A stretch of 64,000 nucleotides of DNA, from the NCBI RefSeq assembly GCF_041562875.1, contig NZ_JBFFOE010000005.1, positions 454 to 64,453 on the forward strand, written 5' to 3'. Of this stretch, positions 38,795 to 42,983 are shown one piece after another. Under the pieces are notes generated by a model. It was not told the DNA's origin. It did not search any database and was given only the letters and a program-made list of their open reading frames with translations. Position 1 is the stretch's first letter, and every line of letters begins with the position of its first letter. A program made the position numbers and the translations under genes. The DNA is from Lutibacter sp. GTDB taxonomy: Bacteria > Bacteroidota > Bacteroidia > Flavobacteriales > Flavobacteriaceae.

Positions 38795-40014
38795 TTTAAA
38801 ACTTCATTCTGCTCAGTTAAAGTCCGCCGTAGCCATAACATTAGAACAACAGCCAACAAACCTAAACCTGTCATTAAATACCAATTAGCCTCAAAACCAA
38901 ACCTATCAATAACTTCCATTCCTGTTTTTGCACTAAAAATATGCGCTGTTGAAAAAGCCATAGAATATAAAGCTAAATAGCGTCCTTCTTTACCAGAAGG
39001 AGCTCTACTCATAGCAAAATTGTTTGTAAACGGAAAAGCCAACATTTCACCAAAAGTTATAAATAACATACTTATTATTAAAATCCCTATCCAACTAGAA
39101 GTATTTAATATTAAAAAACTTAATGCAAATAAAAGCAAGCTCCAAGTTATAATCTTTAGTTTGTTAAATAATTTTTTTTCTATATAATGAATTATAGGCA
39201 TTTCAAACAGAAAAATTATAAATCCGTTTAATGCCATTAGCAATCCAATTTCTACTTCGGTTAATTTATGAACCGCTTTATAATACAGCGGCATTGTTGT
39301 AAATAATTGCAAAAATACAAAGCCCATTAAAAAAACCACTCCTAAAAAGATCCAATATGCTTTATCTTTATAAATGGATTTTACAATGCTTTCTATTGAG
39401 TCTTCTATCTTTTTAGTATGAAATTTCTTTTCCTTCAATACAATTTTCATTAATATAATAGCTGTAATACAAGTAATTCCGTCAACCCAAAAAAGACCTG
39501 AATAACTTATACTTGTAATAATTATTCCACCTAAAAAAGGGCCAAACGAAAAACCTAAGTTTATTGCCAAACGAATTAACGTTAAAGATCTTGTTTGGTT
39601 TTCAGGCTTACTGTAGGCTTTTAAAGAAACAAACATTGCTGGTCTAAAAGTATCTGCAACCGTCATAGTTAAAAATATACCAATTGCAAAGCCATAAAAT
39701 GTAGATACATACTGCAAACCTATAAATAGAAACCCTGTAATTAACAAACTCCAAAACATTACTTGATAAAAACCAATTTTATCAGTCAGCTTTCCTCCTA
39801 GCCATGAACCTAACAATGACCCTACACCAAAACTTGTCATAATCCAACCTACTTGACTTAATGTTAAATTTAAATCTTCGGTTAAATACAATGACAAGAA
39901 AGGCAATACCATGGTACCAGCTCTATTTATAAATGTAATTAAAGCCAACCACCAAACTTCTTTTGATAGACCTCTAAATGAATCTTGGTAACTATTTACC
40001 ACCTTTTTCACCAT
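38791..40014 (-). CDS. MFS transporter (12 TM, probable exporter)
   Basis: FINRAGTMV, motif A GGKLTDKIG, RLAINLGFSFGP, GRYLALYSMAF. Confidence 0.92.
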   Translation of the reverse strand: MVKKVVNSYQDSFRGLSKEVWWLALITFINRAGTMVLPFLSLYLTEDLNLTLSQVGWIMTSFGVGSLLGSWLGGKLTDKIGFYQVMFWSLLITGFLFIGLQYVSTFYGFAIGIFLTMTVADTFRPAMFVSLKAYSKPENQTRSLTLIRLAINLGFSFGPFLGGIIITSISYSGLFWVDGITCITAIILMKIVLKEKKFHTKKIEDSIESIVKSIYKDKAYWIFLGVVFLMGFVFLQLFTTMPLYYKAVHKLTEVEIGLLMALNGFIIFLFEMPIIHYIEKKLFNKLKIITWSLLLFALSFLILNTSSWIGILIISMLFITFGEMLAFPFTNNFAMSRAPSGKEGRYLALYSMAFSTAHIFSAKTGMEVIDRFGFEANWYLMTGLGLLAVVLMLWLRRTLTEQNEVLN

Positions 40015-40025
40015 ACTATAAAATT

Positions 40026-40050
40026 AAAAAACCCGGCTTTTAGCCGGGTT
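40026..40050 (-). terminator. Intrinsic terminator inside the MFS 5' leader (attenuator)
   Basis: The minus strand reads AACCCGGC-taaaa-GCCGGGTTTTTT and ends 12 nt before the MFS ATG. The -7 box TAGATTTG lies at 40180-40187. Confidence 0.75.
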
Positions 40051-40083
40051 AAATATGAATTTAAACTATTTATTATTAAATAA

Positions 40084-40158
40084 TTATAACATATATACAT
40101 CCCGGTAGTTTTTTAAAAACCACTTTATTACGGTATTATATCGTTTACAATTATTCAT
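40084..40158 (-). CDS. Putative 24-aa leader peptide MNNCKRYNTVIKWFLKNYRDVYML
   Basis: ATG..TAA ORF just downstream of the promoter. It overlaps a CCGGG complementary to the terminator 5' arm. Confidence 0.55.
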   Translation of the reverse strand: MNNCKRYNTVIKWFLKNYRDVYML

Positions 40159-40264
40159 AGAATTATCTACTTTATTTGTCAAATCTACAAAATTTATTCA
40201 ATTAACAATGTTTTTTTATCAAACGAATAATATTTAGTATTTTTAACCTTCAAAATATACCCTA

Positions 40265-40882
40265 ATGAAAAATTTGTTTTTTGCTTTTCTAATAGTTACA
40301 ATTTCAATTTCTTGTACAACTAATAAAACTTCTTACGAAGATGAAATTAAATTAGTTCAATATGAATTAAACTTACAATATGCTGATGCTGAAGAATCAC
40401 CTTTAACTGCTGAAGATTTAAAAACTTTTAAAGCTTTAGAGTTTTTTAAAATTGATAAAAATTATAAAGTTGAAGCTACTTTTGAATTAACTCCAAATAC
40501 GCCTGTTTTTGAAATGCCTACTACTACAGAAAGACTTCCTTTATATAGAAAATATGGAATTGCACGTTTTTCTCTTCATGGAAAAGAAATTGAATTAAGC
40601 CTTTATCAAAGTCAAGATTTAATGATGAATGCAGAATATGAAGATTATCTTTTTTTACCATTTAACGATAAAACAAATGGCACAACAAGTTATGGAGGCG
40701 GTAGATTTATAGATTTAAAACTTCCTTCAAAAGATAGCAAAACAATAGTTATAGATTTTAACAAAGCTTACAACCCATATTGTGCTTATAATGGTAGATT
40801 TTCTTGTCCTATTCCACCTTCAGAAAATACAATTCCTATTGAAATTTTAGCAGGTGTAAAAGCTTACGGTAAGCATCATTAA
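40265..40882 (+). CDS. DUF1684 family lipoprotein
   Basis: Lipobox ISISC, FLPFNDKTNG..SYGGGRFID, IDFNKAYNPYCAY..CPIPP. Confidence 0.9.
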   Translation: MKNLFFAFLIVTISISCTTNKTSYEDEIKLVQYELNLQYADAEESPLTAEDLKTFKALEFFKIDKNYKVEATFELTPNTPVFEMPTTTERLPLYRKYGIARFSLHGKEIELSLYQSQDLMMNAEYEDYLFLPFNDKTNGTTSYGGGRFIDLKLPSKDSKTIVIDFNKAYNPYCAYNGRFSCPIPPSENTIPIEILAGVKAYGKHH

Positions 40883-40885
40883 AAA

Positions 40886-40916
40886 AAGTCCATTCAGAAA
40901 TTTTCTGAATGGACTT
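40886..40916. terminator. Terminator between convergent genes
   Basis: AAGTCCATTCAGAA-att-TTCTGAATGGACTT. Confidence 0.85.
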
Positions 40917-40955: not shown

Positions 40956-41636
40956 CTATAATGATATTAGAAATACTAAATATGCATCTTCAGTATCTGG
41001 ATTGAATATTGCCGATGCAGAAACACCTAAACTAAATGAATCTGTCATTTTAATATCTTTTGATGCGGAAACACCAAAATTAGTAACTGCAAAATCACCA
41101 TCAAGTGAATAAATTTCATTACCTGCCCCAACAAAAGCGCTTAATTCTGTTTCTCCTACTTTAAAAGGATATCTTATTTCTGTATAAATAGAATTTTGAT
41201 CATCATTGTAAATGTTAACACCAATCATAGCTGTTAAAGGAAATTTTTCAACCCCATCAAAAGTTAAAGTTGTTTCACCAATATGGTTTTTCATTTGAAA
41301 ATAACCGTCTGATACACCATCTACTGGAAATGCATAATCCGTAAATCCTAATGAAACTGGACCGAAAGAATAACTTGCATACAAATCGAATTCTTGCCCA
41401 ACCACTTGTCCGCCAGTTTCATAAGAAGCCCAAGCTCCTAATGTGAAATTTCCTGAGGTAAGCTCAACATAAGGTTGAACAGCAGGCGAATCAGAAAATT
41501 CTAAACCTCTCCATACATACCTACTTGCGAAATCTACTCCAATATCTAATGAAGCTTTCGTTTCTTCTTGTGCATTTATTGTACTTACTAATAAAATTGT
41601 TATCAATACCAATATTGCTTTTTTAATTGTTTTCAT
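40956..41636 (-). CDS. Putative porin (TorF / Gcw_chp-like beta-barrel) downstream of amtB
   Basis: Signal peptide, DFASRYVWRG, PAVQP, LGAWAS, EFDLYASY, amphipathic strands. Confidence 0.75.
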   Translation of the reverse strand: MKTIKKAILVLITILLVSTINAQEETKASLDIGVDFASRYVWRGLEFSDSPAVQPYVELTSGNFTLGAWASYETGGQVVGQEFDLYASYSFGPVSLGFTDYAFPVDGVSDGYFQMKNHIGETTLTFDGVEKFPLTAMIGVNIYNDDQNSIYTEIRYPFKVGETELSAFVGAGNEIYSLDGDFAVTNFGVSASKDIKMTDSFSLGVSASAIFNPDTEDAYLVFLISL

Positions 41637-41741: not shown

Positions 41742-42983
41742 TTAATGCTCGTTTAAAGCAAAATCTGGATAAGCATCCATTCCGTGTTCATGAATGTCTA
41801 AGCCTTCTTGTTCTTCCTCTACAGAAACTCTAATACCCACTGTAACTTTTAAAGTTTTAATAATTACATAAGAAGTAGTTAAACAGAAAGCTCCTATTGA
41901 AACAACCCCAATTGCTTGGTAACCTAATTGTGTCCAACCTGCCAATTCGCCAAAAATTCCAACAGCTAAAGTTCCCCAAATACCACAAATTAAATGTACA
42001 GCAATTGCACCAACTGGGTCATCTAACTTTAATTTATCCACTAACGCTACACCCGTAACAATTAATGCACCTGCAATAAATCCAATTAAAATAGAATCTG
42101 TTACGCTCATTATATCAGCACCGGCAGTAATCCCAACTAAACCACCAAGAATTCCATTTAAAAACATAGACAAATCATATTGTTTGTATTTAAATAAAGA
42201 CACTAAAAAAGCAGACAATCCTCCAGAAGCAGCAGCTAAACAAGTGGTAACTAAAACCAATGATGTTTTTGCCGGATCAGCAGAAAGTACAGATCCGCCA
42301 TTAAAACCAAACCAACCTAACCACAAAATAAATACACCCGCTGTGGCAAATGGCATATTATGACCAGGTATTACACCTATTGAACCATCTTTTTTGAATT
42401 TTCCAATTCTTGCTCCCAATAACCAAACTGCAATCAATGCTGCCCATCCACCAACTGAATGCACTAAAGTTGATCCTGCAAAATCATAAAAACCAAGTTC
42501 ATCTAACCAACCTGTTCCCCATTTCCATGAACCTGTAATTGGATAAACTATACCAACATAAATAATTGTAAAAATCATAAATGACCCTAGTTTTATTCTT
42601 TCAGCAACAGCTCCAGAAACTATCGTTGCTGCCGTAGCGGCAAACATTCCTTGAAATAAAAAGTCTGTCCAGTAGGTATAACCTCCATTAGCGTATGCAG
42701 CTGTCAATCCATTTTCAGGAACTGTAAGTCCAAATAAATCAATAAAATAATCAGGTATAATTCCTGCAATAAACGTCCCCGGATACATTAGATTAAATCC
42801 TACCAATGCATATAATACCATTCCAATTGAAATAATAAATACGTTTTTAAATAAAATATTTATTGTATTTTTTTGTCTTGTTAATCCTATTTCTAACAAT
42901 GAGAATCCTAAATGCATTAAAAAAACTAATGCCGTACAAATCATCATCCATACATTGTTTACTGTAAATAATGTGCTTTCCAT
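41742..42983 (-). CDS. amtB: Ammonium transporter
   Basis: FQGMFAATAATIVSGAVAER, DFAGSTLVH, GWFGFNGGS, NGILGGLVGITAG, DDPVGAIAVH. The twin His residues are present. Confidence 0.97.
   Translation of the reverse strand: MESTLFTVNNVWMMICTALVFLMHLGFSLLEIGLTRQKNTINILFKNVFIISIGMVLYALVGFNLMYPGTFIAGIIPDYFIDLFGLTVPENGLTAAYANGGYTYWTDFLFQGMFAATAATIVSGAVAERIKLGSFMIFTIIYVGIVYPITGSWKWGTGWLDELGFYDFAGSTLVHSVGGWAALIAVWLLGARIGKFKKDGSIGVIPGHNMPFATAGVFILWLGWFGFNGGSVLSADPAKTSLVLVTTCLAAASGGLSAFLVSLFKYKQYDLSMFLNGILGGLVGITAGADIMSVTDSILIGFIAGALIVTGVALVDKLKLDDPVGAIAVHLICGIWGTLAVGIFGELAGWTQLGYQAIGVVSIGAFCLTTSYVIIKTLKVTVGIRVSVEEEQEGLDIHEHGMDAYPDFALNEH

Follow-up and report, generated by a model that had tools for sequence, protein, structure and literature searches.

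A conserved leader upstream of an MFS transporter gene in Flavobacteriaceae with the features of a ribosome-mediated transcription attenuator

The window analysed here, a stretch of 64,000 nucleotides from a Lutibacter genome that was assembled from a marine metagenome, carries on its minus strand a gene for an MFS transporter (Table 1). Its start codon (ATG, 40014) is fixed by homology, since 28 of 30 homologous loci have their initial Met at the corresponding position of the alignment. The gene is monocistronic in the window, because the next gene is convergent, and its upstream neighbour, a DUF1684 gene (40265-40882), is divergent from it. The solved structure nearest to the transporter is that of the multidrug efflux pump NorA (E = 6e-12); among the NCBIfam models, none reaches its cut-off for this protein, and the best matches are to drug:H+ antiporter models. 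Of 78 loci from other genera, 23 have an MFS stop codon that overlaps the start of a gene for a 125-aa protein of the glyoxalase/bleomycin-resistance (VOC) fold, and no such partner gene is found in the genome from which the window comes. An MFS gene joined to a translationally coupled VOC-fold gene fits a detoxification operon, and the predicted role of the MFS protein in export or detoxification is plausible.

Upstream of the MFS gene lies a leader of about 150 nt with three mutually exclusive pairings (1:2, 2:3 and 3:4). In 1:2, the first half of the small reading frame described below pairs with the second, with the hairpin P1 at the tip; in 2:3, CCGGG of codons 18-20, together with the end of the frame and the spacer, pairs with the 5' arm of the terminator; and 3:4 is the terminator stem. 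It is preceded by the box TAGATTTG, which fits TAnnTTTG, the -7 promoter consensus of Bacteroidota, and from this box an A-rich stretch of 21 nt leads to the ATG of a small open reading frame (uORF). The 12 nt that directly precede this ATG are likewise A-rich, and an A-rich initiation context that lacks a Shine-Dalgarno sequence is usual in Bacteroidota. An AT-rich spacer of 33 nt separates the stop codon of the uORF from an intrinsic terminator, the T-run of which ends 11 nt before the MFS ATG. The promoter box, the 24-codon uORF and the terminator had all been picked out in an earlier note made from the letters of the sequence, and all three are present as described there. Because only these 11 nt lie between the T-run and the ATG, the MFS gene of Lutibacter would hardly be transcribed except by read-through of the terminator. 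The same note had considered that the hairpin might end an antisense transcript; however, the sequence that follows it on the plus strand, AAATATGAA, has no T-run, so that the hairpin is a terminator of the sense strand, and it does not terminate the upstream gene, because the DUF1684 gene is divergent. A 30-codon open reading frame that crosses the terminator (40100-40008) was judged to be spurious, since it does not stay open in L003, the nearest of the relatives inspected by eye.

Table 1. Features of the MFS gene and its leader, in coordinates of the window.
Feature	Position	Strand	Basis or remark
MFS transporter gene (407 aa, 12 helices)	40014-38791	minus	PF07690, E = 2e-57
-7 promoter box TAGATTTG	40187-40180	minus	sequence; matches Bacteroidota consensus TAnnTTTG
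Transcription start (putative)	~40172 +/- 3	minus	inferred from -7 box position
Leader uORF (24 codons + TAA; encodes MNNCKRYNTVIKWFLKNYRDVYML)	40158-40084 (TAA 40086-40084)	minus	sequence
Segment 1 (5' strands of uORF hairpin; anti-antiterminator)	40156-40131	minus	MFE fold
H1	40156-40145 with 40089-40078	minus	MFE fold
H2	40141-40137 with 40097-40093	minus	MFE fold
H3 (CCG/CGG)	40133-40131 with 40104-40102	minus	MFE fold
P1 hairpin (GTGGTTTT-TAA-AAAACTAC; uORF codons 12-18)	40123-40116 with 40112-40105	minus	MFE fold
Segment 2 core (CCGGG; uORF codons 18-20)	40105-40101	minus	alternative partners CCG 40133-40131 (OFF) or CCCGG (ON)
Anti-terminator (ON), extended hairpin with base CCGGG/CCCGG	40105-40044	minus	constrained fold
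Intrinsic terminator (AACCCGGCT-AAA-AGCCGGGTT)	40050-40030; six-T run 40031-40026	minus	sequence

When the full leader is folded, the two halves of the uORF pair with each other in a hairpin of -20.2 kcal/mol, which is followed by the terminator (-14.6 kcal/mol). The core of segment 2, CCGGG, is complementary to CCCGG in the 5' arm of the terminator (40048-40044), as had been proposed from the letters; the alternative proposed with it, in which the segment pairs with an upstream CCG next to the P1 hairpin, was found as well, both the pairing and P1 being part of the MFE fold. P1 itself is possibly a pause or stacking hairpin. Withholding the 3' arm of the terminator and blocking the 5' half of the uORF leads to the ON hairpin (-15.7 kcal/mol), the upper part of which consists of the 3' end of the uORF, the stop codon and the AT-rich spacer, and the core helix of which has only 5 bp in the window. 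With dinucleotide shuffles as the control for fold energy, the uORF hairpin of the window has z = -3.3, the anti-terminator region z = -3.1 and the terminator z = -3.75.

The upstream regions of MFS orthologues from 29 genomes of the same genus and from 80 named genome records provided 68 distinct leaders of the same type, which were selected for having a uORF. They come from Lutibacter and more than 20 other genera, among them Tenacibaculum, Polaribacter, Algibacter, Flavivirga, Psychroserpens, Lacinutrix, Seonamhaeicola, Gaetbulibacter, Ichthyenterobacterium, Aureivirga and many other Flavobacteriaceae. The uORF ATG follows a TAnnTTT[GA] box at a distance of 17-24 nt in 67 of these leaders and of 9 nt in the remaining one, the atypical L065, and an A-rich stretch precedes the ATG in every one. 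The uORF is 20-30 codons long, with a mode of 24, and its frame is kept throughout the set, whereas the other two frames of the same span are open in 4 and 7 leaders, with about two stops each. From the stop codon to the stem of the terminator, which is canonical in all 68, there are 21-43 nt, mostly 23-33. The segment of a leader that best complements the 5' arm of its own terminator is found 13-16 nt ahead of the stop codon in 51 of the 68. Pairing with the own arm is stronger than with foreign arms (mean 14.4 vs 12.5), a small difference that is not relied on, because the arms are all similar G/C-rich words and G-U pairs are tolerated, which makes the test weak. The end of the hairpin is 11-16 nt from the MFS ATG in Lutibacter, and the gap between terminator and ATG is 20-150 nt in most other genera. 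In about half of the Lutibacter species, the leader has been replaced by a different, shorter one.

Covariation was assessed in two alignments, one of 19 Lutibacter leaders (A1) and one of 43 leaders of other genera (A2). From a cross-genus MAFFT alignment, RNAalifold recovered no helix but the terminator; the other helices were written by hand and their pairs counted. The OFF structure is 88.5% paired in A1, compared with 39-48% when the partners are slid, and 11 of its pairs have changed on both sides; H1, H2 and H3 are 87%, 81% and 82% paired, and for P1, in which both bases have changed in 3 pairs, the value is 87.6%. In other genera, the position of P1 is taken by a hairpin of unrelated sequence, such as CTTGT/ACAAG, ACCGT/ACGGT or TCGTG/CACGA. 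The terminator is 97.7% paired in A1, where 4 of its pairs differ on both sides, and 94.8% paired in A2, where 6 pairs do so (33 cells) and where its covariation score is reached by none of 500 shuffles. For the ON helix, pairing amounts to 85% in A1 (11-66% with slid partners), with one position that is C-G in 9 leaders, U-A in 5 and a G/U wobble in 3, and to 82.6% in A2, where the slid control, which covers the ON helix and P2, gives 34-44% and where all 10 leaders with A at a varying position of the arm have U opposite. In leader L031, the ON helix has switched to GCCGAG/CTCGGC. Against dinucleotide shuffles, the uORF hairpins of the 68 leaders have a mean z of -2.5, the ON regions one of -2.8 and the terminators one of -5.8. 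Judged from the aligned sequences, the terminator, the anti-terminator and the uORF hairpin thus all show compensatory changes relative to the slid or shuffled controls. The earlier note had staked its proposal on the conservation of the uORF and of the complementarity, and both are conserved across genera, with co-varying bases.

A covariance model (R1) built from 58 leaders and applied at E <= 0.001 finds matches in 177 of 401 sampled Flavobacteriaceae genomes, representing 141 of 302 genera, with one strong copy per genome; the genome of the window has exactly one match, at this locus. The best 30 of the R1 matches all lie directly upstream of an MFS orthologue on the same strand. Because the orthologue is a single-copy gene present in 247 of the 401 genomes, about 70% of the orthologues carry a recognizable leader. 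Comparison at this level establishes the elements of the leader, their conservation and covariation, and their exclusive linkage to the MFS gene. Apart from a pheA leader (locus L141, 58.6 bits), second matches within genomes are weak, at 42-48 bits, and due to chance. The pheA leader encodes the Phe/Tyr/Trp-rich peptide MKHLSTYFNFWYFYFMEKPGIVM and has the same layout, which indicates that this architecture also serves classical attenuation in Flavobacteriaceae. Leader peptides of pheA, hisG and ilvE have been reported in Flavobacterium psychrophilum (PMC9723704). A search of public sequencing runs for this Lutibacter and for one relative with a complete genome yielded no usable RNA, only DNA metagenomes and, from relatives, three oligo-dT 'RNA' assemblies of sediment, the contigs of which extend across the terminator and are indistinguishable from DNA.

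No entry of Rfam 15 reaches its gathering score in a scan of the region with E up to 10, the best scores being 21-27 bits against thresholds of 41-114, and the sub-threshold matches (Hrs12, MicF, and Trp_leader with 21.5 bits against 41) are all carried by the terminator. Ten representative loci likewise gave nothing at gathering score, and a full-text literature search found no description of the element. The element is new to the catalogues, but leader-peptide attenuation itself is a known kind of switch. The uORF and the terminator now go unannotated, and the element should be added to RNA-family catalogues.

Passage of a ribosome was simulated by folding the nascent leader up to the end of the terminator 5' arm while 27 nt around the P-site were masked, codon by codon; such folding is thermodynamic and not kinetic. 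The 2:3 helix is obtained in 81-94% of the 68 leaders as long as at least 12 codons separate the P-site from the stop, and in 0-12% once the distance is 2-10 codons; with the P-site on the last sense codon, the ON helix appears in 50% under the 27-nt mask. In the leader of the window, the 2:3 helix is predicted with the P-site at codons 1-14, is lost from codon 15 on and never forms without a ribosome. When the leaders are folded free of ribosomes, the ON fold wins in 60% of all 68 and in 33% of those from Lutibacter, so that the untranslated state may not be OFF in many leaders of other genera. The simulated behaviour is that of a trp-type attenuator, in which a stall in the middle of the peptide would give read-through and free-running translation or no translation would give termination. 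The three-way layout that had been deduced from the letters is thus reproduced by the folding and the simulation, and the suggestion that a mid-peptide stall would turn on the transporter agrees with the predicted read-through, which is confined to codons 1-14.

Taken as a whole, the leader is most likely a ribosome-mediated (leader-peptide) transcription attenuator that controls the MFS gene, a reading to which we give a probability of about 0.8. Transcription would begin a few bases past the -7 box, and the uORF is probably translated. Without a ribosome on the leader, pairing 1:2 would form, followed by 3:4, and the transcript would end at the T-run. A ribosome that has reached the last ten codons or the stop codon would cover segment 2, and the hairpin, presumed to terminate transcription, would form again. 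A ribosome held at about codons 1-14, on the other hand, would break 1:2 and leave segment 2 free to pair with segment 3 before segment 4 is made, and the polymerase would read into the MFS gene. What the switch is proposed to sense is thus the progress of the ribosome through the first half of the uORF. To our knowledge, the coupling of transcription and translation in Bacteroidota is uncharacterized.

The conservation of the uORF lies mostly at the level of RNA. The leader peptides diverge widely between genera (for example MTIFNTYKQCKWTVRYGTCWATYVL, MRNNVTIYRKQWTSCLKTSCWASYILW and MYQVLTYITKLSCKTRENRSVNMF); in Lutibacter, the entropies at codon positions 1, 2 and 3 are 0.64, 0.66 and 0.67 and most variant codons are non-synonymous, and neither codon periodicity nor an excess of synonymous changes is seen in the uORF. 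Apparent conservation of residues largely coincides with RNA helices, KWFLKN corresponding to P1, Y-R-D or C-W-A to segment 2, and the Tyr codons to A/U helices. Because codon periodicity is absent, the case for translation rests on retention of the frame and not on conservation of amino acids. A pattern of this kind, along with the spacer AATAAATAATATCAATTCA that is highly conserved in Lutibacter and the ON fold that forms without ribosomes in many genera, would also suit a riboswitch-like or protein-binding RNA, in which a metabolite or protein stabilizes the anti-terminator or the anti-antiterminator and the ORF is incidental. This is quite unlikely, however, because AT-rich sequence has kept an open frame in every one of the uORF-selected leaders while the other frames carry about two stops each, because the ATG stands in an A-rich context at a fixed distance from the promoter and the stop codon at a fixed distance from segment 2, and because the structures are plain hairpins that have no Rfam match and no conserved multi-helix junction or pocket. 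In addition, Lys-Gln is encoded just upstream of P1 in 37 of 47 non-Lutibacter leaders, in all four combinations of synonymous codons, and Lys-Trp occupies the equivalent spot in Lutibacter; in the sequences compared, the Lys-Gln pair is the one sign of selection on the peptide.

The uORF and its terminator might instead form a free-standing small gene or sRNA, with a separate promoter for the MFS gene. In the window, TAATTTTA at 40024-40017 resembles a -7 box and lies 2 nt before the MFS ATG, and if the TAATTTTA / TAGTTTTA word of Lutibacter, which overlaps the T-run, were the promoter, the mRNA would be nearly leaderless; words of this kind also come after the T-run in relatives, and the wider gap between terminator and ATG in other genera could hold a promoter. 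T-rich words after terminators, however, arise trivially, and no -33 element is evident. An independent transcription unit would have no need of a co-varying segment that is complementary to its own terminator 5' arm and is kept in a fixed place, its peptide is not conserved as a protein, and the adjacency of the 30 best R1 matches to an MFS orthologue, in addition to the one strong copy per genome, also speaks against independence, which makes this arrangement very improbable. Least probable of all is that the uORF controls the MFS gene after transcription, through mRNA stability or through occlusion of the start region by a hairpin that terminates inefficiently, because, although the Lutibacter hairpin ends within the 30S-binding region of the MFS gene, it has the full form of an intrinsic terminator (a G/C-rich stem closed by a short loop, a run of 6-8 T and, pairing with this run, an A-tract) and in most other genera is too far from the ATG to occlude it.

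If the leader is an attenuator, the nature of the stall that opens it can be approached from the codons of the uORF. The earlier note had offered shortage of Trp or Arg as one possible trigger. This is not borne out, because the leader peptides contain no run of regulatory codons for one amino acid, and the CGG codon for Arg belongs to the anti-terminator strand and is therefore constrained at the level of RNA. Shortage of one charged tRNA is a rather improbable trigger. The leading candidate, at somewhat less than even odds, is that translation slows down in general, most plausibly because of antibiotics that target the ribosome or of some other translation stress; translation-inhibiting compounds are ranked first on account of the plausible role of the MFS protein in export or detoxification and by analogy with leaders of Bacillus and the pneumococcus. 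A sequence-specific, ligand-dependent arrest, for which Lys-Gln(-Trp) is the candidate motif, is a more tentative proposal, and other causes would make up what is left. Equally tentative is the corresponding idea that the uORF encodes an arrest peptide with a Lys-Gln(-Trp/Cys) core which, together with the ribosome, senses a compound removed by the MFS protein and, where present, its VOC-fold partner. Should this be true, the leader would be the first case described in Bacteroidota of a native nascent-peptide switch that senses a small molecule, and it would be ancestral to much of Flavobacteriaceae.

Ribosome-mediated attenuators of drug-response genes are known from Bacillus subtilis, namely those of bmrB-bmrCD, vmlR, tlrB (yxjB) and ytbDE (PMC13689557, PMC6851288), and from the mef(E)/mel leader of Streptococcus pneumoniae (PMC4335068). 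Like the element described here, these Firmicutes leaders have a short uORF, anti-antiterminator, anti-terminator and terminator hairpins and no run of cognate codons, and in them a stalled ribosome gives read-through, as is proposed for the element. Moreover, ytbD and mef(E) are MFS pumps, and the element also precedes an MFS transporter gene. The element nevertheless belongs to a different phylum and has no sequence similarity to the Firmicutes leaders, from which it also differs in its initiation without a Shine-Dalgarno sequence, its Bacteroidota promoter, and its chromosomal, single-copy and family-wide occurrence. The amino-acid attenuators trpL, hisL and pheL, and the pheA, hisG and ilvE leaders of Flavobacteriaceae, have the same 1:2 / 2:3 / 3:4 logic and an intrinsic terminator (PMC9723704). 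Their leader peptides of 20-25 codons are comparable in length to that of the element; unlike them, the element has no codon run for one amino acid and precedes a transporter gene and not a biosynthetic operon. By analogy, the element functionally resembles the drug-response class, and it shares sequence with neither class.

Two further leader peptides invite comparison. TnaC of the E. coli tna operon depends on W12, D16 and P24; the ribosome stalls at the stop codon of tnaC and there blocks the access of Rho. The peptide of the window shares with it a length of 24 residues and a K-W-F near residues 11-14, a likeness that the earlier note had remarked on, allowing that it might be coincidence. 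It can now be regarded as coincidence, because KWF is encoded by P1 and residue 13 varies among W, K, R and G within Lutibacter. An arrest peptide of the TnaC type was rejected, since residue 16 is K and residue 24 is L, so that D16 and P24 are absent, and W13 is variable; Rho-dependent termination was rejected in view of the canonical intrinsic terminator, and a stall at the stop codon in view of the simulation, in which a ribosome near the stop masks the anti-terminator and would favour termination. The tetQ leader of the Bacteroides conjugative transposon CTnDOT, which is thus part of a mobile element and encodes a peptide of 3 codons, mediates tetracycline-dependent translational attenuation. 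It resembles the element in being a Bacteroidota leader peptide, and it couples a resistance gene to ribosome stalling, but it controls translation and not termination, and its sequence is unrelated.

Flavobacteriaceae are major degraders in marine and fresh waters and include fish pathogens, and very little is known about cis-regulatory RNA in this family beyond a handful of riboswitches and amino-acid leaders. The element could serve as a reporter for translation stress in Flavobacteriaceae, as a handle on the substrate of a widely conserved pump, and as a test case for attenuation in a phylum that does without Shine-Dalgarno-led initiation. In F. psychrophilum, a transcription start site has been mapped 138 nt upstream of the MFS gene THC0290_0574, which is a candidate orthologue only, and under some conditions the leader segment of this gene is up to about 8-fold above the coding sequence (PMC9723704).

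The covariance model built from 58 leaders of the MFS transporter gene produced, besides leaders of this kind, only one other sizeable match (58.6 bits) when run on 401 Flavobacteriaceae genomes, namely a leader-peptide attenuator of pheA in L141, a locus from a relative. Its uORF of 23 codons (MKHLSTYFNFWYFYFMEKPGIVM), in which Phe, Tyr and Trp are abundant, is accompanied by an anti-terminator and a terminator, and the leader ends 24 nt ahead of a prephenate-dehydratase-like gene. The layout is identical to that of the MFS leader.

In approximately half of the Lutibacter species, the same MFS gene is preceded by a shorter, different leader, found upstream of the MFS start at locus position 1501 or 1201 (L005, L007, L015 and L040-L043) and at further loci (L009-L011, L014, L016, L017, L027, L051, L054 and L057-L059). 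The short leader has the -7 box TAATTTTG and lacks the 24-codon uORF; it carries a conserved two-codon mini-ORF, ATG-GGT-TGA, which runs into a different terminator (GAATCCGAC...GTCGGRTTT and a T-run), and sometimes an ORF of 3-4 codons directly in front. Between this terminator and the MFS ATG, many of these species harbor an insertion of 180-290 nt that consists of palindromic, G/C-rich, REP-like repeats.

The attenuator could already have been seen experimentally in Flavobacterium psychrophilum, in which the transcription start of THC0290_0574, encoding a 411-aa MFS permease and a candidate orthologue only, has been mapped 138 nt upstream of the gene (PMC9723704, supplementary tables). Its 133-nt leader segment, THC0290_N_0416, reaches an abundance up to approximately 8-fold that of the coding sequence under some conditions (PMC9723704).

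Directly after the MFS stop codon, 23 of the 78 loci of other genera encode a VOC-fold (glyoxalase/bleomycin-resistance, PF00903) protein of 121-127 aa (L064, L068, L069, L071-L073, L077-L079, L082-L084, L088, L089, L091, L092, L097, L098, L100-L102, L104 and L106). Most of these loci show an overlap of 4-10 nt between the MFS stop codon and the beginning of the VOC gene, an arrangement that indicates a two-gene operon under the leader. No homologue of the VOC protein was found in the window's own genome, and several Algibacter loci have, instead of the VOC gene, an ORF resembling FAD/NAD-binding oxidoreductases at this position.

A 30-codon ORF overlapping the MFS leader is probably spurious as a gene, because it is closed in L003, the nearest relative checked by eye. 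On the far side of the divergent DUF1684 gene (plus strand, end at 40882), a hairpin separates the convergent ends of this gene and of a TorF-family porin-like gene, and probably acts as a bidirectional terminator. The porin gene may form a transporter-porin pair with the ammonium transporter gene that it follows on the same strand.

Features of the L141 contig and of the window
Feature	Position	Strand	Description
pheA leader-peptide attenuator	L141 (G422:C5:196600-199400), ~198444-198576 of contig	minus	covariance-model match
30-codon ORF	window 40008-40100	minus	begins within uORF in other frame; spans terminator, overlaps MFS start
Hairpin	window 40886-40916		14 bp, AAGTCCATTCAGAA-AAT-TTCTGAATGGACTT, with runs of A and of T on its flanks
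TorF-family putative porin gene	window 40956-41636	minus	
Ammonium transporter gene	window 41742-42983	minus
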